Of a stretch of 64,000 nt of DNA, positions 4,901 to 36,548 are shown one piece after another. The notes under the pieces were generated by a model. That model made no database searches, was not told the origin of the DNA, and saw nothing but the letters and a program-made list of their open reading frames with translations. Position 1 is the stretch's first letter; each line of letters opens with the position of its first letter. The DNA is from an uncultured Clostridia bacterium (GTDB lineage Bacteria; Bacillota; Clostridia; Saccharofermentanales; Saccharofermentanaceae), in the NCBI GenBank assembly GCA_946611435.1, contig CAMODL010000001.1, forward strand, positions 80,818-144,817, given 5' to 3'. A program made the position numbers and the translations under genes.

Positions 4901-6373
4901 ATGTTAAACAAAAAGTTCATAAAAATATTGTCCTTAACGACAGTTGCAACTGTTACAATGTCGTTTGTCGCATGTAATAGTTCAAATTCAGAAACTGAAC
5001 CGGATGTATCGGTCGAAGTGTCAACGACATCAACGGAATCAGAATCAATGTTGGATGAATCTTCAGAGGCTGACTCATACATCTCAACAGAACTCTTAAG
5101 TGCAGATGATATTGTTATCAACGAAGAAATGTCGAGTGCCAATGACAGCGAACATGTTATCGAAGCTGATGGAGAAGCGATAGAATATTCAAATGTTGGT
5201 ATTACAAAGACCGGGGATTCAGATCAGGGAGATGAGGCAGATTTCTACGGCGATAACAGTGCCGTTTTCGCTACAAACGGAGCAACACTCACATTATCTG
5301 AAATGGTTATCGACACTGATGGTACACATGCGAACGCCGTTTTTTCTTATGGCGAAAACACAACAGTAAACGTGAGCGATTCGGTAATTACTACGAGTGG
5401 GAATTGTTCCGGCGGCATCATGACAACCGGAGGCGGTACAATGAATGCAAACAACCTTACTGTTCATACCACAGGCAATTCTTCGGCTGCTATAAGGTCT
5501 GATCGAGGCGGTGGTACTGTTACAGTTAACGGCGGATCTTATACAACAGACGGTACGGGTTCCCCTGCTATCTATTCAACAGCTGATATTACAGTAGACG
5601 ATGCTATGCTTGAGTCAACAGCTGCTCAGGGCGTTGTAGTAGAAGGTCAGAACAGCGTCACACTTAATAACGTTACCTTGATTGCGGACAATAATACAAA
5701 GAATGGTGATAAGTCCGATTACTATCAGGCGGTAATGATCTACCAGTCTATGTCAGGCGATGCAGACGAGGGCTTGGCAGCGTTCTCGATGACAGACGGT
5801 TCACTTACAAATGCTAACGGAGACATCTTCTTTGTAAATAATACAGTAGCAACGATTACGCTTGAGAACGTCAGTATAATAAATCAAGACTCAAGCGGAG
5901 TATTTCTCAGAGCTGAAGCAGCAGGCTGGGGATCAGAAGGATCTAACGGCGGAAAGGTTAATCTCTATCTCGTAGATCAGACAGCAGATGGGAATATTGT
6001 AGTGGATGAAGTATCTGCGCTCAATATGTATATGACATCAGGATCGAGCTATGAAGGGACGATCAATACAGATAACGAAGGCGAAGTTTATGTTGAGATC
6101 GAATCTGGATCTACTTGGACACTTACCGGAGACTCCTATATATCATCTCTTACTTGTGATTCCGGTTGTATCGATCTCAATGGACATAAACTCTATGTAA
6201 ATGGAATTGAATACTCAGAAGGTTCTTCATCAGAAGGAACAGCAATCACGCTGGCGACAACAAGTTCATCTTCAGATCATAACGGCAGACCTGATGGAGA
6301 GCCTCCTGAGATGCCGGATGGTAATGGAGGCCCCGGTGGTGAGGGAGAAGAACCGCCGGCAAAGCCGGACTGA
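4901..6373 (+). CDS. Secreted lipoprotein with repetitive beta-helix-like G/T/N/S-rich repeats
   Basis: SD GGAGGTG upstream. Lipobox SFVACNSS. Repeated segments such as NAVFSYGENTTVNVSDSVITTSGN and GGTMNANNLTVHTTGNSSAAIRSDRGGGTVTVNGG suggest parallel beta-helix turns. The C-terminal tail is Pro/Gly/Glu-rich. Confidence 0.7.
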   Translation: MLNKKFIKILSLTTVATVTMSFVACNSSNSETEPDVSVEVSTTSTESESMLDESSEADSYISTELLSADDIVINEEMSSANDSEHVIEADGEAIEYSNVGITKTGDSDQGDEADFYGDNSAVFATNGATLTLSEMVIDTDGTHANAVFSYGENTTVNVSDSVITTSGNCSGGIMTTGGGTMNANNLTVHTTGNSSAAIRSDRGGGTVTVNGGSYTTDGTGSPAIYSTADITVDDAMLESTAAQGVVVEGQNSVTLNNVTLIADNNTKNGDKSDYYQAVMIYQSMSGDADEGLAAFSMTDGSLTNANGDIFFVNNTVATITLENVSIINQDSSGVFLRAEAAGWGSEGSNGGKVNLYLVDQTADGNIVVDEVSALNMYMTSGSSYEGTINTDNEGEVYVEIESGSTWTLTGDSYISSLTCDSGCIDLNGHKLYVNGIEYSEGSSSEGTAITLATTSSSSDHNGRPDGEPPEMPDGNGGPGGEGEEPPAKPD

Positions 6374-6528
6374 TCAGTTTTTGAAAATGGTACTATAAAA
6401 GTATCAAATTAAAAATAGTAGTTGAAACCGGTATATTACCTGCCGCGTATCATTCCCTATAATCTTGCACTTTGTGGTAGAATAACAAGCTGAATTACAG
6501 ATCAATCTTGTTATAAAGAGGAGAAGCT

Positions 6529-7230
6529 ATGAATAAGTATTACAAACAGGGAATCGCATTGCTGATGGCAGCAGTTATGCTCTCAGGCGTTGCATGTTCC
6601 AACAAAGATGTTAAAGAAGAGTCTGAGGCTGAATCAGTTGCTGAGTCTGTTTCAGAAACAGCAGAAACTGTATCTGCCATTATAACTCCCGCAGGACATT
6701 CCGATTCTGAAGGCTGGATCTGCCCTAATTGCGGAGCAGCAGGTAACCTCGGAGCCTTCTGTGCCTCATGCGGTTCGCCCAAGCCTGCATCAGCTGAAAC
6801 AGAAGATACCGCTCTTCAGACAGAACCGTCTGTTACCATGATGACTTATGAGACATTTGAGGATCAGAACGGCACAGGCAGCACGCATGGCGTTTTTGGT
6901 ACCCAAAGTCCCTTCACTGTCTTAGACCCTGAGACAGGGCTTGAGCTCCAGTTAGTAGGCAACGGATCATTTAGCTACGACCTTGGAGAAAATGAGGTAA
7001 GCGAGGATCTGATAAAGGCTAATCTTATAGCATCATTCCAGAGCAGAGCAGTCAATGCGGTCGAAGCAGAAGGTTACTCAAACCTTAACAAAAACATCCC
7101 TGATATCGAAAAAGGTATTGAGAGTGACTTAAGGCTTGCTTTGGGCATTGTCAATGTTGATGTCGCTATCAATGCATGCATTCTTAACGAAGAGAGCCAG
7201 GAGGCTTACGACGCAGCAACAGGACGTTGA
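6529..7230 (+). CDS. Lipoprotein with an internal zinc-ribbon (CPNCG...CASCG)
   Basis: SD AAGAGGAGAA upstream. Lipobox LSGVACSNK. The motif is CxxC-x12-CxxC. Confidence 0.7.
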   Translation: MNKYYKQGIALLMAAVMLSGVACSNKDVKEESEAESVAESVSETAETVSAIITPAGHSDSEGWICPNCGAAGNLGAFCASCGSPKPASAETEDTALQTEPSVTMMTYETFEDQNGTGSTHGVFGTQSPFTVLDPETGLELQLVGNGSFSYDLGENEVSEDLIKANLIASFQSRAVNAVEAEGYSNLNKNIPDIEKGIESDLRLALGIVNVDVAINACILNEESQEAYDAATGR

Positions 7231-9342: not shown

Positions 9343-12300
9343 ATGAGCATAAAGAGAAGATCGGACAGGAAGATACTCAGACTGAGTGTTTTGCCGGCAG
9401 CGGTGATACTGTTCATTACTCTTGCGCCTTTTCTACTTATGGCAGGGCATGCCGAAGCCCATATTAACACTGATGTCATCAGTTTTGATGAGACAGATGC
9501 GGACAATGGTGATAATCCGAACGAAGATGCTGATGCTCATATCCTGTCTGTTGATCCCACCACGCATTCTGACGGCTATTCTGCTGTTTTGTACGATAAC
9601 ACGAACGGGCTTCCGACCTCTGAAGCTAATGCCATAGTGCAGACATCCGACGGATTCATCTGGATCGGAAGCTACAGCGGACTTATCAGGTATGACGGCA
9701 ATACTTTCGAGAGGATGACTTCGATCGGTATTCCGAGTGTAGTCAGCCTGTATGTCGATTCTCATGACCGTCTGTGGATAGGTTCTAACGACAGCGGTGC
9801 TGCCGTCGTCGAAGGTGAACAGACCAGGATCTTCAATAAGACGGATGGTTTGAATTCTCTTTATGTCAGATCCATCATCGAAGATTCAGAAGGCAATATC
9901 TATCTCGGAACGACGAGCGGTGTGTCGATCATCGACAGCGATATGAACGTTACCAATCTGGATGATCCGAAGATCCGCGATCACTATGTGATGAGGCTTT
10001 TTGAGTGTTGTGACGGCTCGATCTGCGGTGTTACCAGAGAAGGTGCGGTATTCACCGTAAAGGACGGTGTACTGACAGGCTTCTATGACTCTTCATTTAC
10101 CGGAGTCAACAACATACATGCGGTCCTGCCCGATCCTGAGAAGCCGGGCTACTTCTATTTTGGAACGACCGGCACGTCCATTTATTACGGACGGCTCGAC
10201 AGTAACGGCTTTGACTGTTCCGAGATCATTTCCGTGACGTCGTTGTCATATATCAATGCGATCTACAGTATCGAAGATATGATCTGGATCTGTACCGACA
10301 CCGGCATGGGAGTATTACGAGACGGTACGGTGGATGTAGTCGACTATGTTCCGATGACGTCATCAGTCGATAACATGATGGTCGACTATATGGGTAACCT
10401 CTGGTTTGTATCATCCAAACAGGGCGTCATGAAGATCGTTCCGAACAGGTTCAACGACCTTTTTGCCAAATATGATATCGAGGAAGAACTGGTCTATTCT
10501 ACATGCCTGTATGAGAACATGCTCCTCATCGGAACGAAGACCAGAGGACTTATCGCGATAAGCAACGGTCAGATCGTCAATTCGATCCCGGTCACGAGTT
10601 CCGTCTCGGCATCGGGTACGGTCTATGACAGAGATGAAGACCTTATCGAGATGTTCGACGGGTACAGGATAAGGTCGATCATTCCGGACAGTCAGGGCCG
10701 CGTGTGGATATCGTCTTTCAGTGAGCAGCCGTTAGTCAGGTTCGGCGGTGGTGAAGTAGTAAAGTTCACGAGTGAAGACGGTCTTCCTTCGGACCGGGTC
10801 AGAGCGGTTTACGAGTGCGACGACGGTTCATTCCTCGTATGCTGCACGGGCGGACTGGCGATCATCAAAGACGATAAGGTAATAAGGGTCTACGACGAGA
10901 CAGACGGACTTACGAATACCGAGATCCTGACAGCGGCCGAAGCCCCGAACGGTGATTACATAATCGGTACCGACGGCGGCGGACTCTATGTCATCTCAGA
11001 TGACAGCATCACTCACATCGGTACGGATGAAGGGCTGAGTTCGGATGTAATAATGCGGGTAAAGCCAGACAAGAAGAGAGATCTTGTCTGGCTCGTAGCA
11101 AGTAATGCCATTTGTTATCTGACCGAGGACTATGAGATACACGTAATAGATCAGTTCCCTTATACCAATAACTTTGACCTGTACGAGAACAGCGAGAACG
11201 AGATGTGGATCTTAAGCAGTAACGGGATCTATGTGACGGATGTTGATTCGCTGCTGAACAATGAAGATATCGACCCTCTGTTCTACGGAAGTGACAACGG
11301 CATGTCTACTATGCCGACGTCCAATTCCTACAGCGAACTCCTGAGTAACGGTGACCTCTTTATTGCAGGCAGCACGGGTGTCGATAAAGTCAATATCGAG
11401 CAGTCGGCAGTGGATGTCAGCGACTTAAAGATCGCAGTCCCGTATGTCCAGGCAGATGATGAGTTCATCTATCCCGACAGCGCAGGCAAATTCGTTATCC
11501 CGGCTGACACCGAGAGGCTGACGATCTACAGTTATGTATTCAACTATTCGCTCATCAATCCGACGGTCACTTATCGTCTTGTCGGCTTCGAGAGCCGTTC
11601 TACGGTTGTCAACAGAAGCGAGCTTGCACCGATCACATATACCAACCTCGACGGAGGTGAGTATATCTTCGAGATGCAGGTCGATGATCCACACGGCAAC
11701 AACAGTCAGGAGATCAGCGTAGTCATCGTAAAGAAGAAAGCTTTCTGGGAACAGGTGTGGGTCCGCATCCTGGCGTTTGTCGCGCTTATTGCCATCATAT
11801 GCGGCGTCGTCATGTTCCTGATGGACCGCAGGACCAAAGCCTTCTTGAAGAAAGAAGAAGAGCAGAAAGAATTGATCCGCGAGATCGTTGAGGCATTTGC
11901 CAAAGTAATCGATATGAAGGATAAATATACCAACGGTCACTCCACCAGAGTTGCCGAATTCACGGCCATGCTTACACGCGAACTCGGGTATGACGAGGAC
12001 ACGATCGAGAAGTACTACAACATTGCCCTCATGCACGACATAGGCAAGATCGGCATCCCGCCCGAAGTCCTGAACAAACCCGGCAAGCTCGATGACAACG
12101 AATATCACGTCATCCAGTCGCACGCCTCACTCGGCTACGACACTCTCAAAGACATCAGCATAATGCCCGAGCTTGCGACCGGCGCCGGAGCGCATCACGA
12201 GCGTCCCGACGGCAAGGGCTACCCGAACGGTCTCAAGGGTGACGAGATCCCGCGCGTCGCACAGATCATCGCAGTGGCCGATACGTTCGATGCAATGTAT

Positions 12301-12507
12301 TCCGAGCGTCCCTACCGCAAGCGCATGAACTTCGAACGCGTCGTCTCCATCATCAAAGACGCCCGCGGCACCCAGCTGACGGCTGACGTAGTCGATGCCT
12401 TCCTCCGCCTCGTCGAAAAGGGTGAATTCCGCGCCCCGGACGATATCGGCGGCGGCACGACAGAAGACATCAACAACATCCACAAGAAGTTTAATAAGGA
12501 GAAGTGA
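9343..12507 (+). CDS. Sensor protein: extracytoplasmic two-component-regulator propeller repeats + Y_Y_Y domain, one TM, cytoplasmic HD-GYP phosphodiesterase domain
   Basis: It has a signal/TM segment at the N-terminus. Repeated ...DG.IWIGS..GL..YDG... propeller blades follow, and a TM segment at about aa 810. The HD-GYP motifs are HDIGKIGIP and HHERPDGKGYP. Confidence 0.85.
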   Translation: MSIKRRSDRKILRLSVLPAAVILFITLAPFLLMAGHAEAHINTDVISFDETDADNGDNPNEDADAHILSVDPTTHSDGYSAVLYDNTNGLPTSEANAIVQTSDGFIWIGSYSGLIRYDGNTFERMTSIGIPSVVSLYVDSHDRLWIGSNDSGAAVVEGEQTRIFNKTDGLNSLYVRSIIEDSEGNIYLGTTSGVSIIDSDMNVTNLDDPKIRDHYVMRLFECCDGSICGVTREGAVFTVKDGVLTGFYDSSFTGVNNIHAVLPDPEKPGYFYFGTTGTSIYYGRLDSNGFDCSEIISVTSLSYINAIYSIEDMIWICTDTGMGVLRDGTVDVVDYVPMTSSVDNMMVDYMGNLWFVSSKQGVMKIVPNRFNDLFAKYDIEEELVYSTCLYENMLLIGTKTRGLIAISNGQIVNSIPVTSSVSASGTVYDRDEDLIEMFDGYRIRSIIPDSQGRVWISSFSEQPLVRFGGGEVVKFTSEDGLPSDRVRAVYECDDGSFLVCCTGGLAIIKDDKVIRVYDETDGLTNTEILTAAEAPNGDYIIGTDGGGLYVISDDSITHIGTDEGLSSDVIMRVKPDKKRDLVWLVASNAICYLTEDYEIHVIDQFPYTNNFDLYENSENEMWILSSNGIYVTDVDSLLNNEDIDPLFYGSDNGMSTMPTSNSYSELLSNGDLFIAGSTGVDKVNIEQSAVDVSDLKIAVPYVQADDEFIYPDSAGKFVIPADTERLTIYSYVFNYSLINPTVTYRLVGFESRSTVVNRSELAPITYTNLDGGEYIFEMQVDDPHGNNSQEISVVIVKKKAFWEQVWVRILAFVALIAIICGVVMFLMDRRTKAFLKKEEEQKELIREIVEAFAKVIDMKDKYTNGHSTRVAEFTAMLTRELGYDEDTIEKYYNIALMHDIGKIGIPPEVLNKPGKLDDNEYHVIQSHASLGYDTLKDISIMPELATGAGAHHERPDGKGYPNGLKGDEIPRVAQIIAVADTFDAMYSERPYRKRMNFERVVSIIKDARGTQLTADVVDAFLRLVEKGEFRAPDDIGGGTTEDINNIHKKFNKEK

Positions 12508-12610: not shown

Positions 12611-12639
12611 TTGACAACCATTGCCCCAAGGGTGATAAT
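12611..12639 (+). promoter_or_regulatory. Sigma-A-type promoter of the ctsR operon
   Basis: TTGACA (12611-12616), a 17-nt spacer, then GATAAT (12634-12639). Confidence 0.65.
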
Positions 12640-12645
12640 ATAATT

Positions 12646-12669
12646 AGTCAAAGATAGTCAAAGTCAAAA
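12646..12669 (+). promoter_or_regulatory. CtsR operator: direct heptad repeats AGTCAAA-GAT-AGTCAAA plus an adjoining GTCAAAA
   Basis: It matches the (A/G)GTCAAA-NAN-(A/G)GTCAAA CtsR box. It sits 7 nt downstream of the -10 box, directly upstream of ctsR. Confidence 0.85.
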
Positions 12670-12749
12670 CAAAAGCAAGATCATCACCATAAACAATGAC
12701 AGATGATGGTAAAGGCGCATAAGCAAGACAGCAGGAAAGGAGAGGCGTT

Positions 12750-13211
12750 ATGGCAAGGTTGGTCGATGTCATCGAGATGATGATAAAGGACATGCTCGAT
12801 GAGAATAACGGGAGTGCCACGATCAGCAGGAGCGTGCTCGCAGAGAAGGCGAATTGTGTTCCGTCGCAGGTTACGTATGTGCTGTCGACCAGGTTCTCGA
12901 CCGGAAACGGTTATCTGGTCGAGAGCAGAAGAGGCGGCGGCGGACAGATCACTATTACGAGAGTTCAGCCGATGAACAGGGGCGATTATATAAGTTCGGT
13001 CATCAAGTCGGTCGAGAACGTTCTGACACAGGAGCAGGCGAGGACGCTTCTTACGAATACGGTGGCGTGCGGGGCGATCAGTTCCAGGGAGGCAACAGCG
13101 GTCATGGCGGCTGTGTCGGACAGGGCGCTCGCCAAGATAGACAGCGATATCAGATCGGTAGTAAGGGCTGACATCTTCAAGAATACGATGTTGGCATTGA
13201 TGATGGATTAA
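12750..13211 (+). CDS. ctsR: Class III stress-gene repressor CtsR
   Basis: 153 aa. It has the winged-HTH with the Gly-rich loop ESRRGGGGQITI and sits first in a ctsR-mcsA-mcsB-clpC arrangement. Confidence 0.9.
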   Translation: MARLVDVIEMMIKDMLDENNGSATISRSVLAEKANCVPSQVTYVLSTRFSTGNGYLVESRRGGGGQITITRVQPMNRGDYISSVIKSVENVLTQEQARTLLTNTVACGAISSREATAVMAAVSDRALAKIDSDIRSVVRADIFKNTMLALMMD

Positions 13212-13232
13212 GAGAGGAGAGGAGAAGAGATT

Positions 13233-13931
13233 ATGAGATGTGAGAAATGCGGTGCCTTACTGGGCAATAGACTGATAAAGATCAACGGAGTGTTGTTGTG
13301 TGAGAATTGTGCACGTGAGGTGACACGGGATCAGCAGCTGCTGTTTAATTCTGCTTTTCCGATCCTTGATGAACTGACGGGCGGATTTATGAATGGCGGA
13401 CTCGATTTCGCGAATACGAGGATCACCTGTTCCAAGTGCGGTTCGACACTGAGAGATATTGAGGCGAGCGGCAAGGTCGGATGTATTGACTGCTATAACA
13501 CGTTTAATGAGACGATCCTTAAGTTCTTACTTAAGCGTCAGGGCAACAGCGAGTACAGAGGAAGATCGCCGGGCGAAGAGATCCTGATCGAGACGGCCGG
13601 GAACGAGGAAGATGATCCCGTAGCAGGAAACAAGGATGAGGTTAACGCTGCCGAGAAGACTTCGAGTGCACGCCGTACTGCAAAGAAGAAGGCAGAGGAT
13701 AAGCCTGAGGAGAAGACTGAGAAGGTCAGCGCAAAGAAGACGGAGAAGGCTTCTGATACAAAGGCAGGGGCAAGCAGGGAAGACCGCATCGCCAAGCTCA
13801 ACAAGGCAGATCTGGGGATGCTCGACGACAAGGCACTGGAAGATGGTATGAAGCTGGCGGTCGAGTGCGAGGACTATGCGCTCGCGGCAAGGCTGAGAGA
13901 TGAGCTTAAGAGCAGGAAAGGAGACAAGTGA
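13233..13931 (+). CDS. mcsA: McsA-like zinc-finger/UVR-domain protein with a long Lys/Glu-rich insert
   Basis: Two pairs of CxxC motifs (CEKCG...CENCA and CSKCG...CIDCY). A C-terminal UVR-like helix (DYALAARLRDELKSRK). Its operon position fits. Confidence 0.8.
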   Translation: MRCEKCGALLGNRLIKINGVLLCENCAREVTRDQQLLFNSAFPILDELTGGFMNGGLDFANTRITCSKCGSTLRDIEASGKVGCIDCYNTFNETILKFLLKRQGNSEYRGRSPGEEILIETAGNEEDDPVAGNKDEVNAAEKTSSARRTAKKKAEDKPEEKTEKVSAKKTEKASDTKAGASREDRIAKLNKADLGMLDDKALEDGMKLAVECEDYALAARLRDELKSRKGDK

Positions 13932-13932
13932 C

Positions 13933-14955
13933 ATGTGGTATGAGAAGAGCGGGAAAGATACCGATATCGTTTTATACTCGAGAGCATGTATCTATCGTAA
14001 TATCAAGGGGATCCCCTTTCCGCAGAAGATGGTGTCTTCGGACAGGGAGCACGTTATCGACACGGTGAGAGAGGCAGTCAAGGGCAGCGGCATGAAGTTC
14101 GTGAGGCTTGATGAGCTGGATGATAAGTCTAAGGCGGATCTTTTCGATCAGTATTATGCGACTTACGCGTTCCTGAATGACGGCGGTGAGTCGGCGTTCC
14201 TGATAGATACCGAGAACAGCACGTGCGTTACTGTCAACAGGACGGAACATATCGAGATCGATACCATACTCGCAGGATCGAATATACGGGAAGTCTTCAA
14301 CAGGTCGAACAAGGTTGCGGTCGATCTCGAAAAGAAGATCGACATCGCCTACAGCGAGAAGTTCGGTTTCCTGACGTCTGACCTGAGACTTCTCGGTACA
14401 GGATTACAGCTGGTCTTCCTTGTGGCGCTTCCGGGGATAGAGAAGACGCAGGCGGCATATCAGATGCTGTCGCAGCGTATAGCTCAGTACGACTGGAAGA
14501 TAGAGCCGGCGATCTTCGCTGAAGAGACTAATCAGGCAGGACTCTATATCATACATAATGTGGCGACCCTCGGTGTTGAGGAAGTTTCTCAGCTTGAGAT
14601 GGCGAACAGGCTGATAAACGAAGTCATCTTCCTTGAGAGGAAATGCCGGTCCAACATCGTGAGGAAGAAATCACTGATCGTCGAGGATCAGTACTATCGC
14701 GCATACGGACTTCTCCGCTATGCGAGGAAACTTACGACATCGGAGGTTATGAGTCTTCTGCTGTGGCTGAGGCTCGGACTGGAGCGGATCGAGAATGATG
14801 AGACAGACCTCGACTGGTACAGACTTAATCGAATAACGCATGATGCCAGACGCGATTACGGAACGATGATGATGAGCGGGAACAATGCTTCCCAGAAGGC
14901 GATAAGACGCGCTGAACGTGTAAGGAAGATCTTGAAGGGAGATGATGAGATATGA
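13933..14955 (+). CDS. mcsB: McsB-like ATP:guanido phosphotransferase homolog with a degenerate catalytic signature
   Basis: Operon position fits, and it aligns without gaps to the McsB core (DIVLxSRxxxxRN, LTS....GTGL, HLPxL-like LPGI). I prefer the ATG at 13933 (MWYEKSG) over the ORF-track start at 13900. See the findings for the lost catalytic residues. Confidence 0.8.
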   Translation: MWYEKSGKDTDIVLYSRACIYRNIKGIPFPQKMVSSDREHVIDTVREAVKGSGMKFVRLDELDDKSKADLFDQYYATYAFLNDGGESAFLIDTENSTCVTVNRTEHIEIDTILAGSNIREVFNRSNKVAVDLEKKIDIAYSEKFGFLTSDLRLLGTGLQLVFLVALPGIEKTQAAYQMLSQRIAQYDWKIEPAIFAEETNQAGLYIIHNVATLGVEEVSQLEMANRLINEVIFLERKCRSNIVRKKSLIVEDQYYRAYGLLRYARKLTTSEVMSLLLWLRLGLERIENDETDLDWYRLNRITHDARRDYGTMMMSGNNASQKAIRRAERVRKILKGDDEI

Positions 14956-17570
14956 GGTTAACGGAAGATACCACACAGGTAATCATAATGGCCAAACGCC
15001 TTGCCGATTCGCAGGGCGGAAAGATGATGTCAACGGAATTCATCCTGGCGGGGCTTCTTGCCGTCGACGGTCCTGCGTGCGATACGCTGAACCGTAACGG
15101 ACTGGATCTCGAGACAGTATGTAATATACTGAGTGCGGATCCGACTACATTGTCAGAGCCTACTAAGGAATATGAGATTGAAGAAGGATTAAGGTCGTTC
15201 AGACTTGAGACGAAGAGGCTTTTCGCTGATGCGGCTGATGCCAGCAGAAGGTCGGGGAGCAAGGGTGTCATCAAGCCTGAGCATCTCCTGTTCGGGATCG
15301 CCAGTAACAGGAGTTTTACTGCCTACAATCTTCTTGTCAGAGCTGATGTGGATGTAAAGGCGTTACTCGAGGATACCGTCTCGGGGTTCGGAAGCGGCGG
15401 ACATTCAGACGATATGCCTTTTGACGAGGAGAATGATGACTTCCCGATGATGGGTGACCGTGCTTCATCACGTCCCCGTACGTCGAGGAACGGAAAGAGA
15501 GGCAAGGGCAAGACGCTCGATCAGTTCGGCAAGAACCTGACACAGATGGCAAAGGACGGCAAGATCGATCCTGTCATCGGACGTGAGGAAGAGATCAACC
15601 GCGTTATGCAGATCCTTGCAAGACGCACAAAGAATAATCCTTGTCTCGTAGGTGACCCCGGTGTCGGTAAGACGGCGATAGCCGAAGGTCTGGCTCTCAA
15701 GATAGCGACGGACGATGTGCCGGATATCCTGAAGGGTAAGACAGTCTATTCGATCGATATGGGTTCCATGGTTGCCGGTTCCAAGTACAGAGGTGACTTC
15801 GAAGAGAGGATCAAGAACGTACTCACCGAAGCGTGTGAAGACTCGAACATCATCCTCTTCATCGATGAGATCCATACTCTTATAGGCGCCGGCGGAGGCG
15901 AGGGCTCACTCGATGCCGCGAACATCATGAAGCCGATGCTTACAAAGAATGAGCTGCAGGTCATCGGTGCGACAACTCTTGATGAGTACAGCAAGCATAT
16001 CGAAAAGGATTCCGCTCTTGAGAGACGTTTCCAGAAGGTCCTTGTAAACGAGCCTTCGGTTCCGGAAGCGATCGAGATACTTAAGGGACTTCGTCCGAGG
16101 TACGAAGAGCATCATAAGATCAGGATATCCGATGAGGCTATCGAGCAGGCTGTATTGCTGTCGACGAGATATATCTCCGATCGTTTCCTCCCGGATAAAG
16201 CCATCGACCTTGTCGATGAGGCGGCTGCGCGTAAGAGGATCAATTTTGCCGATTCCGATGAGAAGCATAAGCTCGAGAGCAGGCTCGCTGCCATCGCCGA
16301 AGAGAAGCAGACTGCGGTCAATAATATGGAGTTCGAGAAGGCGGCAGTACTTCGTGACGAAGAGAAGACGATCAACGAGAAGCTCGATGCGATAAGCAGC
16401 AAGTCCGAGCCTGATGAGGACGGATTCACGGGAGTGCTCACGGTAGACGATATTGCAGACGTACTCGCGAAGTGGTCGGGCATTCCCGTATCGAAGATCA
16501 CCGAGTCTGATGCCGAGAGATTAAAGAGTCTCGAGGACGAATTGAAGAAGAGAGTTATCGGACAGGACGAGGCGGTCACGGCAATCGCGAAGGCAATCAG
16601 AAGATCGAGACTCGGTCTTAAGGATCCGACAAAACCGTCGGGAACGTTCATCTTCCTCGGAACGACCGGAGTAGGTAAGACAGAACTTGCCAAGGCACTC
16701 GCGGAAGTCATGTTCGGCAATGAGAACGCACTTGTCAGGATCGATATGTCGGAGTATATGGAGAAACACGATGTAAGTAAGCTCATCGGATCTCCGCCGG
16801 GATATGTAGGTTACGAAGAGGGCGGACAGCTCACCGAGAAGGTACGTCGTCATCCGTATTCGGTCGTGCTTTTCGATGAGATAGAGAAGGCACATCCCGA
16901 CATCTTCAATTCGATGCTTCAGGTGCTCGACGACGGCAGACTTACGGACGGAAAGGGACGAGTCGTCGACTTCAAGAATACGATCATAATCATGACATCG
17001 AATATCGGTGCCAGGATGCTGACGGGAGATGCGGGAAGACGCATCGGATTCAATCTTGAAGACAAGGATGACAAGGATGAGGCGAGCCGCGAGAGACTCT
17101 ACGGCGGTAAGAGTTATGACGAGGCAAAATCGGTCGTTCTCGAAGAACTCAAGAAGGCTTTCTCTCCGGAGTTCGTTAACCGTGTCGATGAGATCATCTT
17201 CTTCAGGATGCTCGGTAAGGATTCGCTGATCAAGATCGTCGATCTTCTTACGGCATCAGTCGGCAAGCGTGTTCAGGATATCGGTATCGAGATCCGTCTT
17301 ACCGATGAAGCAAAAGAGATCCTCGCACGTAAAGGATACGATCCTCAGTACGGCGCGAGACCGCTGAGAAGAGTCATTCAGTCGATGGTAGAAGATACCT
17401 TCTCCGAAGCGCTTCTTGACGGTGTAATAAAGCCCGGATGTATCGCCGAAGTAATAGCCGGGGATGACGGTGAGAGCGTTAAGATAATCAACGCGGGACC
17501 GATCCAAAAAGAGGCTTCTTCCGGTAGCAAAAAGAAGGATAAAAAGAAGACGGAACCGGCATCAAAATAA
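14952..17570 (+). CDS. clpC: ATP-dependent Clp protease ATP-binding subunit ClpC
   Basis: 872 aa. It has a double Clp_N repeat and two AAA+ modules (GDPGVGKT and [12 protein letters not shown]). A UVR-like M-domain is present ([20 protein letters not shown]). It overlaps the mcsB stop. Confidence 0.92.
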
Positions 17571-17781: not shown

Positions 17782-18144
17782 ATGCCCAAAGCAAAGAAGA
17801 CAGAAGCTGCTGAGAAGACAGCAGAAGTAAAAGTAACACCCGTAGTAGAGGCTAAGAAGGCTGAAGAGAAGAAGGTTGCTGCTCCTGCAGCTGCTGCAAA
17901 GAAGCCCGCTGCAAAGAAGGCTCCCGCAAAGAAGCCCGCTGCTAAGAAGCCTGCTGCAAAGAAGACAGCTGCTAAGAAGCCTGCTGCTAAGAAGCTCGGC
18001 AAGATCATCTTCGAGATCGATGGTCAGCAGATCGACTTCAAGGCTATCGAGAAGAAGGCTGCTAAGCTCGGCGGTGACGTTTATGTTGTTGCTGCTGAGA
18101 AGAAGATCTACGATGCAGAAGGAAAGTCTGTAGAGCTCTTCTAA
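17782..18144 (+). CDS. Lys/Ala-rich histone-H1-like repeat protein with a small globular C-terminal domain
   Basis: SD GGAGGT upstream. The N-terminal half contains AAKKPAAKK repeats. The C-terminal roughly 50 aa (KIIFEIDGQQIDFKAIEKKAAKLGGDVYVVAAEKKIYDAEGKSVELF) is non-repetitive. A strong terminator lies downstream. Confidence 0.7.
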   Translation: MPKAKKTEAAEKTAEVKVTPVVEAKKAEEKKVAAPAAAAKKPAAKKAPAKKPAAKKPAAKKTAAKKPAAKKLGKIIFEIDGQQIDFKAIEKKAAKLGGDVYVVAAEKKIYDAEGKSVELF

Positions 18145-20329: not shown

Positions 20330-22285
20330 ATGGCACAGTATTTGAAGAAGAATGTTGAAGATTTGGATGTTGCCGGCAAGAGAGTCATCGTACGTGTTGA
20401 TTTTAATGTACCTTTGGACAAGGAAACAGGCACAAAGATCACAGACGACAAGCGTATCAAGGGCGCTCTTCCCACAATTAAGTATCTCGTAGACAATAAT
20501 GCAAAGGTTATCCTTGTTTCTCACCTCGGCCGTCCGAAGAACGGACCTGAGGCTAAGTTCTCAATGAAGCCCGCAGCAGACAGACTCGCTGAGCTCATCG
20601 GCAAGCCCGTTACACTTGCAGCAGACGTTATCGGCGAGGATGCAAAGGCAAAGGCAGCTGCCCTTAAGGACGGCGAGATCCTCATGCTCGAGAATGTCCG
20701 TTTCCACAAGGAAGAGACAAAGAATGATCCCAAGTTTGCAGCAGAGCTCGCTTCCATGGCTGACCTCTATGTAAATGATGCTTTCGGTACGGCTCACAGA
20801 GCTCATGCCTCAACAGCAGGACTTGCTAACTACCTGCCTTCCGCATCCGGTTATCTGATCCAGAAGGAGATCGACTTCATCGGCGGTGCTCTTTCCAATC
20901 CTCAGAGACCTTTCGTTGCTATCTTGGGCGGTGCTAAGGTATCCGATAAGATCGGCGTTATCACAAACCTCATGGATAAGGCTGATACGATCATCATCGG
21001 CGGCGGTATGGCTTACACATTCATCGCTGCTCAGGGTGGTTCCATCGGTAATTCCCTTTTCGAGGCTGATAAGGTAGATCTCGCTAAGGAGCTCCTCGCT
21101 AAGGCTGAGGAGAAGGGCGTTAAGCTCCTCCTGCCCGAGGATACGGTTGTAGCTGATGATTTCTCCAACGACGCTAATTCCCAGGTCGTTCCTACAATGG
21201 AGATCCCCGACGGTTGGGAGGGTCTCGATATCGGTCCCAAGACTATCGAGAAGTTCTCTGCTGCCATCAAGGAAGCTAAGACAGTAATCTGGAACGGTCC
21301 TGCAGGCGTATTCGAGTTCGAGAAGTTCGCTGTAGGTACAAAGGCTCTTGCAGCTGCTATCGCTGAGTCTGACGCTATCTCCATCATCGGCGGCGGTGAT
21401 TCCGCAGCTGCTATCGAGAAGCTCGGCTTCGCTGATAAGGTATCTCACATCTCCACAGGCGGCGGCGCTTCTCTCGAGTTCATCGAGGGTAAGGTACTTC
21501 CCGGTATCGATTGCCTCCTCGACAAGGAGAACGGCAGAACATTTGCAGCAGGTAACTGGAAGATGAACTGCGGTGTACCTGCAGACGCAGCTAAGCTCAT
21601 CAATGAGCTCAAGCCTCTCGTTAAGGATGCTACGGCTAAGATCGCTCTCGGCGTTCCTGCTACAGCTCTTGCAGCAGCTGTTGAGGCAGCAGCTTATTCC
21701 AACATCAAGATCGCAGCCGAGAACTGCCACTTCGAGGAGAAGGGTGCTTTCACAGGTGAGATCTCTCCTCTCTGGCTCGCTAAGATGGGCGTTAACTACT
21801 GCATCATCGGTCATTCCGAGAGACGTGAGTATTTCGCTGAGACAGATGAGACAGTAAACAAGAAGGCTCATGCTCTTCTTAAGTATGGTGTTAAGCCTAT
21901 CATCTGCTGCGGTGAGTCTCTCGCTCAGCGTGAGGCAGGCGAGACATTTGACTGGATCAAGAGTCAGATCGTCGGCGCTTTCAAGGATATCCCTGCTGAG
22001 AAGCTCTGTCAGATCACTATCGCTTATGAGCCTATCTGGGCTATCGGTACAGGTAAGACAGCTACAGATGAGCAGGCTCAGGAAGTTTGCGCATTCATCC
22101 GCGGCGTTATCGCTGAGCTCTATTGCCAGAAGTGTGCTGACGCTATGACGATCCTGTATGGCGGTTCCTGCAACGCTAAGAATGCAGCAGGTCTCTTCGC
22201 TCAGAAGGACATCAACGGCGGTCTCGTAGGTGGTGCTTCCCTCAAGGCTGAGGACTTCTCCATCATCTGCAACGCAGGCAAGTAA
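20330..22285 (+). CDS. pgk-tpiA: Bifunctional phosphoglycerate kinase / triosephosphate isomerase (in-frame fusion)
   Basis: One 651-aa ORF. The first roughly 400 aa are PGK ([23 protein letters not shown]). The ORF then runs straight into TIM (AAGNWKMN...IIGHSERR...[12 protein letters not shown]...GGASL) without a stop. Confidence 0.9.
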
Positions 22286-29324: not shown

Positions 29325-30557
29325 ATGAGTAAGAATGTTTTCGATACGCTGGAAGAGAGAGGATACTTCTCGCAGGCAACACATAAGGAGGAGATCTACG
29401 ATCTGCTCAGCAAGCCCGGTGTATCTTTCTATATAGGATTTGATCCGACGGCAGACAGCCTTCACGTAGGACACTTTGTCCAGATGATGGTAATGAGCCA
29501 TATGCAGAAGGCAGGGCACAGACCTATTGCACTTATGGGCGGCGGAACCGGAATGATCGGAGACCCGACCGGCAGAACAGACATGAGACAGATGATGACG
29601 GTAGAGACTATCGACCATAATGTCGAGTGCTTCAAGAAGCAGATGGGCAAAGTTGTCGACTTCTCTGACGGCAAGGCGATCATCGTCAATAACGCAGACT
29701 GGCTCAGAGACCTCAACTACATCGAGTTCCTAAGAGAGATCGGTCCGCACTTCTCGGTAAACAAGATGCTCACTGCCGAGTGCTACAAGCAGCGTCTCGA
29801 GAAGGGTCTGTCCTTCCTGGAGTTCAACTATATGCTCATGCAGAGCTACGACTTCTATTACCTCCATAAGAAGTATGACTGCTGCCTCGAGTTAGGCGGC
29901 GACGACCAGTGGTCGAATATCATCGGTGGCGTAGAACTGATCAGACGTAAAGATCAGGCACCTGCATATGGTCTTACATTTACACTCCTTACGAACAGTG
30001 AGGGTAAGAAGATGGGTAAGACTGCCAAGGGTGCTGTCTGGCTCGATCCGAACAAGACTTCCGTCTTCGATTTCTATCAGTACTGGCGTAATATCGACGA
30101 TGCTGATGTCATCAAGTGCATGAAGCTCCTGACATTCCTTGAGATGGATGAGATCAATGAATATGCCAAACTCAAGGATTCAGCCATCAACGAGGCAAAG
30201 AAGAGACTTGCATATGAAGTCACCAAGATCGTGCACGGTGAAGAGCAGGCAGATATCGCCAAGAAGACGACCGAGGATATATACGAGAATCACGGACGTT
30301 CCGAGGATATGAAGACGACAGAGATCAGTTCTTCCGATATCGCAGCAGGTCTTCAGATCGCTGACGTTCTCGTTACCGCGGGTCTTATGAAGTCAAAGGG
30401 TGAGGCAAGAAGAATGATCCAGCAGAAGGGTGTATATCTGAACGATGTTGCTGTCGAGGATCAGTTCTATAATCTGGCGGAGTCTGACTTCGATAAGGAC
30501 GGCGAGGCTATCATTCGTAAGGGCAAGAAGAATTATCACAGATTAAAGCTCGTATAA
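29325..30557 (+). CDS. tyrS: Tyrosine--tRNA ligase
   Basis: 410 aa. It has the HIGH-type motif (DSLHVGHF), KMSKS-type motif (KMGKT) and a C-terminal S4-like domain. Confidence 0.92.
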
Positions 30558-30590
30558 GTCATGACCGAGCATTAGAAAAATAGTTATCGG

Positions 30591-30622
30591 GAGACCGTCT
30601 CATCTGTTGGGGCGGTCTTTTG
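30591..30622 (+). terminator. Intrinsic terminator after tyrS
   Basis: GAGACCGTC...GGCGGTCTT stem followed by TTG. Confidence 0.65.
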
Positions 30623-30638
30623 CATGGGATCCAGCTTC

Positions 30639-30833
30639 TTGTCGCAAAGATCCCATTCTCGAAGTTTTGAGACAAGTTTTACTTTGAATTCTTGTCGTAA
30701 ATGTATCGAAAAGTCTCACATGCGATGATTTCTCGCGATAAACATGTCGTAATCTTAAACAATCAACTGAATTACGACAAAAAAAACATCTATTAATCGT
30801 CGCAGATGAGCGAAAATGAGAGTTTTACGACAA
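30639..30833. repeat. Dispersed 9-mer TTGTCGTAA / TTACGACAA motif copies
   Basis: TTGTCGCAA at 30639-30647. TTGTCGTAA at 30692-30700. TGTCGTAAT at 30745-30753. TTACGACAA at 30772-30780 and at 30825-30833. The copies at 30745 and 30771 form a 9-bp inverted repeat with a 17-nt spacer. Confidence 0.75.
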
Positions 30834-31001
30834 GCCGAAGCCGCCGGGTGTCATGCTCAGTTCTTATCTCAGGTGTGCATCCTGCTGCTCGAAATCGGTG
30901 TAACCGGAGCAAATCTCTCAAATTGAGAAAACAGCAAGACAACATCAGTGAAGAATGACAATCAGAGCGAATTGAATAATTGTAATAACCTAACACCATG
31001 C

Positions 31002-31098
31002 AAGTTGTCATGTTCAAAAGTCCCTCAAAGCACTGAAAATGCTGCATTCCTTTCCTGAAGTTGTCATACTTGTCATATTAAAGTTGTCAGTTGACAAG
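31002..31098. repeat. Four AAGTTGTCA-type motif copies, ending in the palindrome TTGTCA-GT-TGACAA
   Basis: AAGTTGTCA at 31002-31010, 31058-31066 and 31081-31089, and CTTGTCA at 31069-31075. The palindrome lies at 31084-31097. Confidence 0.75.
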
Positions 31099-31119
31099 TG
31101 TGTTTTTATCACATAGATT
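31091..31119 (+). promoter_or_regulatory. Putative promoter of the first XRE-TM gene, with the -35 box inside the palindrome
   Basis: TTGACA (31091-31096), a 17-nt spacer, then TAGATT (31114-31119). Confidence 0.4.
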
Positions 31120-31150
31120 CAACTTAAATATACGTATGGAGGATATAGTC

Positions 31151-31717
31151 TTGTCAGGTGTAAAGATTAAAGAATATAGAGAAAAAATGAATTTCTCACA
31201 GAGAGATCTGGCAGGGCTTCTTGGTGTTAGCGTTCGTTCTGTTGCAAGGTGGGAACGGAATATCAGTAAACCCCATCCTGATGAGATGAAAAAGATTACA
31301 AAAATTACGGGGATCACGGAGGACGAGCTGCTTAGATCTGATGATACATCGTATGAATCTAAGAAAACGGTTTTGGATGAGATAGCAGACGGAGTTGGTA
31401 ATCTCGTAACCGGACAAGACATCATAAATGAATCACTGAATATAAATCATAATGAGTTGGTAAAAGAACTCCAAGCACAGAATGAGCAGTTACTTTCTAT
31501 CATCGATTCGTACAAAGCTGCTTTGGATTCAAGTAGGAATGATCTTCGTCAAAAGAGAATAAGGACGATAACAATATTGATTACATGTCTATTAATCCTG
31601 ATATTGATTTTTGGAACATGGCTTTATTGGAGAAATCACGGTTTTGACGGAAGGGTCATTGAAGGATCAGCTGAATTAGGGACACCGTCGTACAATCAAG
31701 TCGATGATGGACAATAA
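31151..31717 (+). CDS. Membrane-anchored XRE-family HTH regulator (HTH, coiled coil, single TM, short external tail), paralog 1
   Basis: The HTH is IKEYREKMNFSQRDLAGLLGVSVRSVARWERN and the TM is ITILITCLLILILIFGTWLYW. The likely start is TTG at 31151, 8 nt after GGAGG. The ORF track starts further upstream at 31091. Confidence 0.75.
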   Translation: MSGVKIKEYREKMNFSQRDLAGLLGVSVRSVARWERNISKPHPDEMKKITKITGITEDELLRSDDTSYESKKTVLDEIADGVGNLVTGQDIINESLNINHNELVKELQAQNEQLLSIIDSYKAALDSSRNDLRQKRIRTITILITCLLILILIFGTWLYWRNHGFDGRVIEGSAELGTPSYNQVDDGQ

Positions 31718-31735
31718 AAACGGAGGTATAAACCC

Positions 31736-32332
31736 ATGAAGAAAGTATTAGCAACATTATTGACAATATCGGTTATATTTTGCGTTTTGGGGATACCCGA
31801 CTCTTCGTGCAGAGCTTCCGAGTCTGAATTCAGCCTCATTGAGTATCTCGAGACACATGATATAAACAGTTATTCCGAGTTTAGAGAAGTTATTGAATCA
31901 AATTGTCCTTATTCGAAAACTGAAGATAGTATAGACTCTGACGATATCACATATTTCAGCATAGAGATAGATTATGAGGATATGACTGTATCAGTGACAA
32001 CAATGGGAGATGCATCGCTTGATAGATCACAGGAAGCAAGTAACAGCGCCTCGAAGACATATTATGCTTCGAACGGGCTTCCTATATTCACAATTCATGT
32101 AGATGGCTCTTTTATCTATATGGCAGGTTCTTGTAATGCAACATCTGCTAGTGGTTCTTTCAACAGAGCGGCACTAAGCACATGGACCAGTAATCCGACC
32201 ATATCTTCAGGAAATATAACCGCAAGCAAAGCTTATGTGCGTATATATGGAATAGCTTCAAGTAATGGTCAGAGCAAATCATATACACTAACACTTACAT
32301 GTGACAGTACAGGACACTTCACAAGCTATTGA
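31736..32332 (+). CDS. Secreted protein of unknown function
   Basis: SD ACGGAGG upstream. Signal peptide MKKVLATLLTISVIFCVLG. 198 aa. The C-terminal half is Ser/Thr/Gly-rich. Confidence 0.65.
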   Translation: MKKVLATLLTISVIFCVLGIPDSSCRASESEFSLIEYLETHDINSYSEFREVIESNCPYSKTEDSIDSDDITYFSIEIDYEDMTVSVTTMGDASLDRSQEASNSASKTYYASNGLPIFTIHVDGSFIYMAGSCNATSASGSFNRAALSTWTSNPTISSGNITASKAYVRIYGIASSNGQSKSYTLTLTCDSTGHFTSY

Positions 32333-32363
32333 CAGACAGATAAGAACAAGGAGGTACAGACCC

Positions 32364-32480
32364 ATGGGCTACATATCAGGCTGTATCGACATAAAAGAAG
32401 ACTCGCACTGCAATACGAGTCTTCGGGTCAGATACAGCAAGGCGCAGGAGCCTCAACACCATCTGAGCACATTTACTTAA
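32364..32480 (+). CDS. Candidate small ORF (38 aa), absent from the ORF track
   Basis: AAGGAGG lies 7 nt upstream of the ATG. The peptide is MGYISGCIDIKEDSHCNTSLRVRYSKAQEPQHHLSTFT. I have no homology evidence. Confidence 0.35.
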   Translation: MGYISGCIDIKEDSHCNTSLRVRYSKAQEPQHHLSTFT

Positions 32481-32545
32481 TAACACAGAATGGCTGTTGA
32501 GGCAAGGACTGAATGAGCGATATTGAATTGCAGAAAGAGTTCATT

Positions 32546-32953
32546 ATGTTAAAGAAAAAACTATTATCCGTGGTCGTTGCATCAGTTATGCTTGTCGCCA
32601 TGGCTTTCTCTGTAAGTGCAGCTTCAAGAGTGACTGGAACATATTCTACTTCAGGCGGTAATATGTCTTACAACGGTTCGCAGACAGTTAGCGGCGCGTG
32701 TATCTACTATTATTTGCGACTGAATTCCGTGTCGTTTAATGGGCTACCGTCAAACACTTTCCCAAGCAATGCATATGTGCATCTTTCAATCTGTAAGAAC
32801 AAGTCTGAAAAAGCAAGCAAGAATTTCTACAGTTGTTATGGACATACGGGTTCGTATTCACAGAGTGGCGGTACATATCAGTTAGGTTTATCTTCAAATT
32901 CAACTTTGGGTTTAACTGTCGGAGCAACATGGAATGCGCAGGAAATACTGTAA
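32546..32953 (+). CDS. Small secreted protein of unknown function
   Basis: Signal peptide MLKKKLLSVVVASVMLVAMAFSVSAAS, from the internal ATG at 32546. The ORF track starts at 32513. Confidence 0.6.
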   Translation: MLKKKLLSVVVASVMLVAMAFSVSAASRVTGTYSTSGGNMSYNGSQTVSGACIYYYLRLNSVSFNGLPSNTFPSNAYVHLSICKNKSEKASKNFYSCYGHTGSYSQSGGTYQLGLSSNSTLGLTVGATWNAQEIL

Positions 32954-33992: not shown

Positions 33993-33997
33993 GATGA

Positions 33998-36163: not shown

Positions 36164-36192
36164 ATTACCAGAATTAGTGGGAGTAAACGACA

Positions 36193-36476
36193 GTGTTCAG
36201 GAGTAAAGCACATCAAAACACTATTGTTATCCTTCTGACGATCATACTGTCAGGGATTCATCTGACAGGATGTTCGAAGGGTGAGAATGAACGGAAGATC
36301 CGTTATATTGACGAGAATACTCCGTGGTATGAGTGTGAAACGATTACGTACGATCTGTGTATGTGATGATCAATGAGGAGCTGGAGACGTATGATCTCCA
36401 GGGCAAACCGATAGAGGACATTGCCGATGTGCTGTATTCCAAGCTGAGCCTGTATGCGAGTGAGCATTATTCATAG
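36193..36476 (+). pseudogene. Internally deleted remnant of a paralog of the 33998..36163 lipoprotein
   Basis: The GTG at 36193 gives a lipoprotein leader (...LLTIILSGIHLTGCSKGENERK...) that stops at 36364-36366. The overlapping frame from 36366 reads MINEELETYDLQGKPIEDIADVLYSKLSLYASEHYS*. That aligns with the last 36 aa of the 721-aa protein (...EEVDSYDLQGKTIQDIAESLQSRIDLYVSENYR*). Confidence 0.6.
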
Positions 36477-36480
36477 AAGA

Positions 36481-36548
36481 ACATGTCACATATAAAAAAC
36501 CGGTGGAAGCTTGAATTAATTGAGTTTGCCCAGGCAGATGTGACATGT
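36481..36548. repeat. Perfect 11-bp inverted repeat ACATGTCACAT / ATGTGACATGT with a 46-nt spacer
   Basis: The arms lie at 36481-36491 and 36538-36548. It sits between the remnant and the second XRE-TM gene. Confidence 0.8.

Follow-up and report, generated by a model that had tools for sequence, protein, structure and literature searches.

A McsB homologue without the arginine-kinase active site in the ctsR–mcsA–mcsB–clpC operon of an uncultured Clostridia bacterium: a candidate natural pseudokinase

McsB is the founding protein arginine kinase, and its phosphoarginine (pArg) mark is considered the equivalent of ubiquitin for ClpCP in Gram-positive bacteria. The kinase and adaptor roles of McsB share one protein and have long been hard to separate. 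Here we describe McsB*, a McsB homologue of 340 amino acids (aa) encoded in a stretch of DNA from an uncultured Clostridia bacterium of the Saccharofermentanaceae (assembly GCA_946611435.1, contig CAMODL010000001.1, positions 80,818 to 144,817). This whole stretch of 64,000 nucleotides (nt) is called the window, and all coordinates are given on it. The gene, mcsB*, occupies 13933–14955 (+ strand) in a ctsR–mcsA–mcsB*–clpC operon. An earlier note, made from the sequence alone, had proposed that its product lacks the catalytic signature and may be a pseudokinase.

The closest described proteins are the canonical McsBs of Bacillus subtilis, Geobacillus stearothermophilus and Staphylococcus aureus (6TV6, 6FH1, 8GQD, 8WTB). 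McsB* has in common with them the fold, the slot in an operon with a CtsR box, the McsA-docking loops, the G-x-L-T-S stretch and the inter-dimer contacts, but it lacks C167, E120/E121, R31, R125, R176, R207, R337/D338 and R194 (numbered as in B. subtilis, with the catalytic C167 of PMC11046695 as the anchor; this numbering is used below for all canonical positions). The engineered B. subtilis variant McsB C167S also lacks the catalytic Cys. Although kinase-dead, this variant can bind the N-domain of ClpC, stimulates the ClpC ATPase to about 50%, promotes disaggregation (in vitro and, in part, in vivo) and is found at aggregates (bioRxiv 10.1101/2022.09.15.508104); this adaptor behaviour is the one proposed here for McsB*. 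However, C167S was made in the laboratory by one substitution, which leaves the remainder of the active site intact, whereas McsB* has lost the entire site together with the pArg receptor; C167S has about ten-fold lower thermotolerance in a pArg-based cell, whereas in the McsB* lineage McsA and the ClpC N-domain appear to have co-diverged. Concerning the phosphagen kinases (arginine and creatine kinases, PF00217), McsB* shares the fold of their C-terminal catalytic domain and, like all McsBs, is without their N-terminal specificity domain. Eukaryotic and bacterial pseudokinases (e.g. Hanks-type, PMC12599244) likewise keep a kinase fold under selection for scaffold or allosteric use; the Hanks-type proteins have a protein-kinase-like fold, whereas McsB* has the unrelated phosphagen-kinase fold. 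The 2025 review of bacterial pseudokinases (PMC12599244) contains McsB in its reference list only, not as a pseudokinase family, and no description of a McsB pseudokinase of natural origin was found in our full-text literature searches. The ClpC adaptors of the MecA/YpbH type dock on the ClpC N-domain, activate the unfoldase and deliver substrates, which is the mode proposed for McsB*, but they have no sequence or fold kinship with it, and MecA is encoded outside the clpC operon.

We compared McsB* residue by residue with 33 canonical McsB loci and with 40 loci of its own clade (39 from a scan of GTDB species representatives plus L001 and L003, obtained by contig look-ups, minus the truncated L039). 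The roles of the residues were drawn from PMC11046695, PMC8370763 and PMC12583610; C167 is the catalytic residue of McsB, and the adjacent T165 and S166 contact McsA (PMC11046695). Nine positions are treated as key (R29, R31, E120, E121, R125, C167, R176, R207 and E212), and all 33 canonical loci agree at each of them. D122 and G211 are also fixed there, and H123 in all but one. The motifs that carry these positions are listed below:

13975–14001, + strand: YSRACIYRN against canonical SSRIRLARN; residues 15–23; R31 replaced by Cys, R29 kept as R17
14236–14256, + strand: NRTEHIE against canonical NEEDHIR; residues 102–108; E120 replaced by R, E121 by T, R125 by E
14365–14415, + strand: GFLTSDLRLLGTGLQLV against canonical GYLTSCPTNVGTGLRAS; residues 145–161; C167 replaced by D (Asp150), PTN lost, R176 replaced by Q
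14497–14532, + strand: lid KIEPAIFAEETN against canonical VVRGIYGEGSE; residues 189–200; R207 replaced by E, G208 by P

The motif readings of the earlier note are exact: SRIRLARN reads SRACIYRN (residues 16–23), NEEDHxR reads NRTEHIE (residues 102–108), the active-site signature TSCPTNVGTGLRAS reads TSDLRLLGTGLQLV (residues 148–161) and VRGIYGEGSE reads IEPAIFAEETN (residues 190–200). The nine positions, together with the equally invariant G208, compare as follows (canonical state; McsB*; clade):

R29: invariant; R17, kept; K in 29/40, R in 10/40
R31: invariant; Cys; Arg in 0/40
E120: invariant; Arg; Glu in 0/40
E121: invariant; Thr; Glu in 0/40
R125: invariant; Glu; Arg in 0/40
C167: Cys in 33/33; Asp; D11, S11, Q9, E5, N3, Cys in 0/40
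R176: invariant; Gln; Arg in 7/40
R207: invariant; Glu; Arg in 3/40
G208: invariant; Pro; Pro in 38/40
E212: invariant; A196 or E197; not conserved

McsB* thus keeps for certain just R29 of the nine key residues, and possibly E212 as E197. The doubt comes from a one-residue shift in the lid, where HMMER aligns E197 with E212 and MAFFT aligns A196; the two candidate columns read Q20, S6, G3 and others, or G18, D12, N5 in the clade, the latter being the E197 column. Within the NEEDH motif the His (H106, equivalent to H123) is the only residue invariant in the clade. The autophosphorylation or clamp residue R194 is Met in McsB*. We take the equivalents in Limulus arginine kinase to be the phosphate-binding R124, R126, R229, R280 and R309, the catalytic-pocket E225 and E314, and C271; on this assumption R126, R229, R280, R309, Glu225 and Cys271 are replaced in McsB*, R124 corresponds to R17, and Glu314 possibly to E197 in the HMMER alignment. 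The HMMER alignment to three solved McsBs is free of gaps between NEEDH and the HLP motif, the catalytic loop included, in agreement with the gap-free core alignment claimed before, and because of this no alternative register exists over that stretch; such a register is ruled out also by the full-length superposition of the AlphaFold2 model. The claim that most of the Arg, Glu and Cys residues binding ATP phosphates or the guanidinium group are gone stands as well: the catalytic Cys, both Glu of NEED and four of the five phosphate-binding Arg are replaced, and in the profile and structure alignment with mapping of the catalytic residues the lid Glu alone is ambiguous (E197/A196). Judged by these residues, McsB* very probably cannot phosphorylate arginine.

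Despite these replacements McsB* is a complete member of its family. It matches the Pfam family ATP-gua_Ptrans (PF00217) at 6.7e-28 with 97.9 bits (cutoff 22.4) over model positions 6–202 of 203. In a phmmer search against all PDB sequences the solved McsBs rank first (8gqd at 5.6e-30, followed by 8wtb, 6tv6 and 6fh1), with an identity of only 23–25%. The NCBIfam equivalog models for protein arginine kinase give scores below every cutoff: the best is NF002194 with 185.6 bits against 385, and NF053707 gives 135.4 against 500. Relatives of McsB* carry PF27454 McsB_C; they are labelled ‘hypothetical protein’ by the Prokaryotic Genome Annotation Pipeline and ‘protein-arginine kinase’ by some other pipelines. 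The AlphaFold2 model, built with 44 homologues in the alignment, has a predicted local distance difference test score of 91 and a predicted template-modelling (TM) score of 0.89. Foldseek places it full-length on McsB 6fh1_B with a TM score of 0.88 over 344 columns, and also on 6tv6; TM scores to the solved McsBs are 0.84–0.88. Arginine and creatine kinases match the catalytic domain only (E about 1e-13 to 1e-15). The predicted scaffold is that of a complete McsB, comprising the phosphotransferase and the dimerisation domains.

The loss of the active site is not private to this genome. A search of a large database gave 47 full-length relatives with 34–99% identity, after which come canonical McsBs at E about 1e-30. 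The clade comprises metagenome-assembled genomes (MAGs) of Saccharofermentans, one Mageeibacillus MAG, many rumen MAGs labelled ‘Clostridiales bacterium’ and the cultured isolates ‘Ruminococcaceae bacterium KHP2’ and ‘YRB3002’. A neighbour-joining tree places the 40 clade loci, which are species-level genomes, in one deep monophyletic group apart from the canonical McsBs. The order ctsR–mcsA–mcsB*–clpC is kept in 40 of 40, all members have an intact mcsB* open reading frame (ORF) of 324–359 aa, and relatives do share the degenerate motifs, a point left open before: the active-site loss is common to all 40. A sequencing or assembly artefact and a private mutation are ruled out by this shared state, by a sequencing run that matches the locus at 100% and by a 99% identical protein (P0001) from independent contigs. 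The ratio of non-synonymous to synonymous substitution rates (dN/dS; Nei–Gojobori, 12 species pairs) is 0.02–0.15 for mcsB*, indistinguishable from that of clpC (0.01–0.14) and of ctsR and below that of mcsA; mcsB* is under strong purifying selection.

Across the clade, with sequences down to 34% identity, 22 columns are invariant, and the nine catalytic positions contribute none of them (0/9). The McsA-docking surface consists of the loops lambda1 (35–45), lambda2 (143–173) and lambda3 (227–233) (PMC11046695); these loops make up 49 of the 340 residues and hold 13 of the 22 invariant columns (hypergeometric p = 5e-7). N23, G26, F29, E133, G145–S149, T212, G214 and E217 of McsB* are invariant or nearly so in the clade. 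The stretch G-F-L-T-S, in which T165 and S166 contact the McsA L2 loop, is retained, while the neighbouring C-P-T-N is lost, and the McsA contacts E150 and E233 are Glu in 40 of 40 clade loci. This pattern suggests that the McsA-docking surface of McsB* is preserved. The inter-dimer contacts of S. aureus McsB (F261, R262, R271 and E277) correspond to Y255, R256, R265 and E271 in McsB*, of which R256 and E271 are nearly invariant. In the dimerisation domain, the allosteric receptor site for pArg (R337, D338 and R341; PMC8370763) is found as a remnant:

14896–14913, + strand: KAIRRA, in place of R337-D338-x-x-R341; residues 322–327; R337 replaced by K322, D338 by A323, R341 present as R326

Most of the canonical loci shown carry (E/D)RDxxRA here. 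D338 is absent from every clade member shown and R337 is lost in most; S285, also of this site, is T269 in McsB*. At the C-terminus the clade has a strongly conserved tail of its own, R-x-I-L-K-G-D-(D/E) (McsB* residues 331–338; 14923–14946), where canonical McsBs have variable tails; the motif may serve in docking or as a degron.

The gene lies in an operon with the elements and genes listed below:

12611–12639, + strand: sigma-70-type operon promoter; −35 TTGACA (12611–12616), 17-nt spacer, −10 GATAAT (12634–12639)
12646–12662, + strand: CtsR operator, direct repeat AGTCAAAGATAGTCAAA, just 3' of the −10 box
12750–13211, + strand: ctsR, 153 aa; helix-turn-helix (HTH) domain, RRGGGG wing and dimerisation domain (Pfam CtsR 5.9e-28, CtsR_C 3e-13)
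13233–13931, + strand: mcsA, 232 aa
13933–14955, + strand: mcsB*, 340 aa, full-length McsB homologue
14952–17570, + strand: clpC, 872 aa
17602–17635, + strand: intrinsic-terminator-like hairpin of 14 pairs followed by a T tract, which closes the operon

The promoter matches the consensus at 11 of 12 positions, and the operator matches the CtsR consensus RGTCAAANNNRGTCAAA with 0 mismatches, being the only perfect match within the window. The Shine–Dalgarno sequence GGAAAGGAG lies upstream of the mcsB* start, and the N-terminus MWYE is the start common to relatives; an alternative start at 13900 (351 aa) was ruled out on these two grounds. The mcsB* stop overlaps the clpC start in ATGA, an arrangement read as translational coupling. 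A contig of 4,851 nt from a public RNA-seq run corresponds to 12717–17567, that is, to the four genes ctsR through clpC and nothing else, and differs from the window within mcsB* at two positions, both synonymous. The gene thus appears to be transcribed together with its neighbours; the contig is supportive of co-transcription, not proof, because contigs from RNA runs can contain DNA. One small isolate-like run matches the locus at 100%, and the locus recurs in sheep, bovine and rumen metagenomes.

Concerning the partner proteins, McsA contains two zinc fingers (C3, C6, C23, C26 and C66, C69, C84, C87), a K/E/A-rich linker of about 70 aa in its middle and a UVR-like helix at the C-terminus. 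It matches PDB McsA 8wtb_B at 3e-09 over Z1–Z2, and the NCBIfam McsA model gives 40 bits against a cutoff of 210. All eight zinc cysteines are kept in 40 of 40 clade loci, and the second finger is conserved; by analogy with B. subtilis, a redox-sensing or scaffold role for McsA is plausible. ClpC has an N-domain (about residues 1–145), an acidic/basic low-complexity linker, D1, an M-domain with a UVR motif, D2 and an IGF loop. Its Pfam matches are AAA_2, AAA_lid_9, AAA and ClpB_D2-small, with Clp_N over residues 14–56 only. The identity to canonical ClpCs is 57–59% in the ATPase body against 26–32% in the N-domain plus linker. The best PDB match of the N-domain is that of plant ClpD (E=2.5e-4), the N-domain structures of B. 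subtilis ClpC following at E about 0.3. The insert between the N-domain and D1 (15386–15520; ClpC residues about 145–190), acidic and then basic, is present throughout the clade with variable length and absent from canonical ClpCs.

The two pArg pockets of ClpC are defined by E32 and E106, and the main (E106) pocket also stabilises the resting state of ClpC (PMC12583610). For these positions a B. subtilis N-domain row served as a ruler only; its GTEH motifs at E32 and E106 agree with the canonical loci and with PMC12583610. The ClpC of the window reads STEF at the E32 position and KPEH at the E106 position. Across the clade E32 is found in 23 of 40 ClpCs and the adjacent H33 in none, while E106 is kept in 37 of 40, H107 in 40 of 40, and T81 is replaced by Arg in 39 of 40. 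One pArg pocket is therefore eroded and the other may survive; since the E106 pocket also stabilises the resting state, its retention is no proof that pArg is still read. The ClpC N-domain appears to have co-diverged with McsB*. The statement of the earlier note that the partners of McsB* look intact needs to be divided: the RRGGGG loop of CtsR (read in the ORF), the perfect operator, the two CxxC...CxxC fingers of McsA and the Glu in both ClpC motifs are all present as described, but the ClpC N-domain as a whole is strongly diverged. Intactness was overstated further in that McsB* has lost its own pArg receptor site.

McsB* is the ortholog of the protein arginine kinase McsB and retains that protein's fold, dimerisation domain and McsA-docking loops. 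The reading we prefer, and hold to be rather likely, is that it is a natural pseudokinase which keeps the kinase-independent adaptor or scaffold role of McsB; the complete fold, the gap-free register, the 40-genome clade, the purifying selection and the apparent transcription all support the pseudokinase proposal. One CtsR-repressed transcript would yield CtsR, McsA, McsB* and ClpC. McsB* would form a complex with the zinc-finger protein McsA and act stoichiometrically, as an adaptor or activator docked on the co-diverged ClpC N-domain, and as a binding partner it would pass CtsR and/or misfolded proteins to ClpC(P); pArg writing by McsB* and pArg-driven self-assembly would be gone. We infer this mechanism from the precedent of kinase-dead B. 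subtilis McsB C167S, which also offers experimental grounds, by analogy, for the adaptor or regulator role suggested in the earlier note.

Several points weigh against the adaptor reading. Full adaptor function in B. subtilis is tied to kinase activity. The inactivity of McsB* is itself deduced from its residues, and some residues around the old site are still basic or polar, with K/R at position 29 in 39/40, K/R at 169 in 30/40, D/E at 122 in 33/40 and H123 invariant, so that ligand binding is possible. The retention of ClpC E106 and H107 (37/40 and 40/40) is unexpected if pArg signalling is wholly absent. A recent cryo-electron microscopy model has CtsR captured by pArg115 of McsA and pArg194 of McsB; the residue matching McsA R115 is Leu in this McsA and McsB R194 is Met, and CtsR would therefore need another binding mode. 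The proposal also gives no reason for a McsA without a kinase to activate.

Other explanations must be weighed against the same observations. The retained basic and polar residues could belong to a ligand-sensing pseudoenzyme, whose remodelled cleft binds a phosphorylated or anionic ligand without transfer, so that a nucleotide, free pArg, a phosphagen or polyphosphate switches the interaction with McsA, ClpC or CtsR. The K/R at 169, where canonical McsBs have Thr, and the strong purifying selection over the whole protein fit such a role, but the replacements vary by subclade (C167 to D/S/Q/E/N, R31 to C/V/I/T, R125 to T/S/E/K, R207 to Y/I/K, E212 to Q/S/G), which suggests a relaxation of constraint and not the fixation of a new pocket, and we consider this explanation unlikely. 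Residual catalysis through relocated or non-canonical residues is less credible still, in fact very unlikely. Pseudoenzymes predicted from motifs are sometimes active with migrated residues, according to PMC10211241; E197 can be aligned with the lid Glu, and McsA, a known kinase activator, is kept with all its cysteines. However, four of five phosphate-binding Arg, both NEED Glu and the catalytic Cys are replaced jointly, the replacements are not conserved, no alternative invariant constellation of acidic or basic residues exists among the 22 invariant columns, and the E197 column itself reads G18, D12, N5.

McsB* might also be a regulatory subunit, for instance a heterodimer partner, beside a further, canonical McsB whose gene lies in another part of the genome. 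This would parallel the many eukaryotic pseudokinases that modulate active kinases. The conserved dimerisation domain and contact residues would suit it, and the retention of ClpC E106/H107 would be sensible if another enzyme writes pArg. Yet McsB* sits in the orthologous slot between mcsA and clpC in 40 of 40 genomes and is therefore the ortholog, not an extra copy, and the loss of its pArg receptor site speaks against pArg-coupled assembly with an active partner. No second McsB homologue was found in the window by tblastn, a result uninformative for the remaining genome, and the scan of the genome collection gave each clade genome once, which is weak evidence as the search pattern was narrow; on balance we judge a regulatory subunit to be quite improbable. 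A search for the motif of low-molecular-weight protein tyrosine phosphatases gave no YwlE-type phosphatase in the window, which is likewise uninformative for the rest of the genome. That mcsB* is a functionless, decaying gene carried along in the operon is scarcely conceivable. The loss of all catalytic motifs is what such a gene would show, but dN/dS rules out a pseudogene, the purifying selection thereby excluding decay; the ORFs are intact in all clade members, 22 columns are invariant at identities down to 34%, the fold is predicted with confidence, translation of the gene is coupled to that of clpC, and the contig of the RNA run carries it with synonymous changes only.

Some neighbouring features of the window were also noted. 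Directly 5' of the operon, 9343–12507 (+ strand) encodes a membrane-anchored protein of 1,054 aa with Reg_prop beta-propeller repeats, a Y_Y_Y domain and a C-terminal HD domain of the HD-GYP type, probably a cyclic-di-GMP phosphodiesterase sensor. Just 3' of the clpC terminator, 17782–18144 (+ strand) encodes a 120-aa protein with a Lys/Ala/Pro-rich repeat region (AAKKPAAKKAPAKKPAAKK), which recalls histone-H1-like or HU-tail DNA-binding proteins and has no Pfam match. A fused phosphoglycerate kinase–triosephosphate isomerase of 651 aa (Pfam PGK and TIM) is encoded at 20330–22285 (+ strand), and such a fusion is also found near the operon in the relative L003. The stretch of about 30000–36500 has a GC content of 0.40–0.41, against about 0.50 elsewhere, and encodes XRE-type HTH proteins as well as several ORFs that resemble lipoproteins; horizontal acquisition as an island is possible.

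Degenerate McsB-like proteins seem to span many lineages. Among the best 150 matches of a clade-profile search of 1.84 billion representatives there are 137 proteins of McsB length (P0061–P0205), of which 48 lack one or more of the nine key residues and 29 retain no more than three. A divergent McsB-like protein of another lineage (P0060, 369 aa) reads GTMGRLVRN, NEEEHLALH, SIPSECGEGLQ and SISPLYPE, and has Ile for the catalytic Cys and Gln for R176. Four long proteins, P0072 (2589 aa), P0074 (1060 aa), P0076 (1803 aa) and P0192 (1687 aa), have three to four separate phosphagen-kinase/McsB profile matches and may be multi-domain (contiguous) phosphagen kinases. The genome scan gave nine further loci with partial erosion (L048, L050, L051, L054, L058, L064, L068, L071 and L084), from MAGs of Acutalibacteraceae, Oscillospiraceae and other Clostridia, the match lying at about 6001–7000 in each locus. 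Eight of the nine adjoin canonical sequences in the tree and have a canonical ClpC N-domain (GTEH/GTEH). Examples are CGDDHIRIN / GFLTESPMELGTALRAE / NIKGITNTDG, or Cys167 replaced by Lys with SISPVFG for VRGxYGE. From their sequences, these nine loci look like independent erosion of the active site, which seems to be recurrent in gut and rumen Clostridia; the clade of the window is the oldest and most complete case among those seen here.

The family and the operon are themselves textbook; what is new here is that the defining activity is lost while the module is retained. A broader scenario, which we put forward tentatively and regard as possible rather than probable, is that rumen and gut Clostridia of an order-level lineage (Saccharofermentans and relatives) have given up pArg writing altogether and kept a co-evolved, phosphorylation-independent McsA/McsB/ClpC stress module, in which McsB* would be a pure adaptor or anti-repressor, possibly gated by ligand or redox state via McsA, with independent erosion in other Oscillospirales. 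A lineage with a dead kinase in which McsA, McsB and ClpC have long been kept together is a natural separation-of-function experiment. It predicts that the adaptor role depends on the McsA-docking loops, on the dimer contacts and on the LKGD tail at the C-terminus, and it indicates that the active site, the receptor site for pArg and the R194 clamp can be dispensed with. As the isolates KHP2 and YRB3002 are cultured, the prediction is directly testable. For annotation, the presence of a mcsB homologue is the wrong basis for inferring pArg signalling in these organisms. If the broader scenario is true, natural McsB pseudokinases would be a recurrent, undescribed class, and the ancestral core function of McsB would be scaffolding and not kinase activity.

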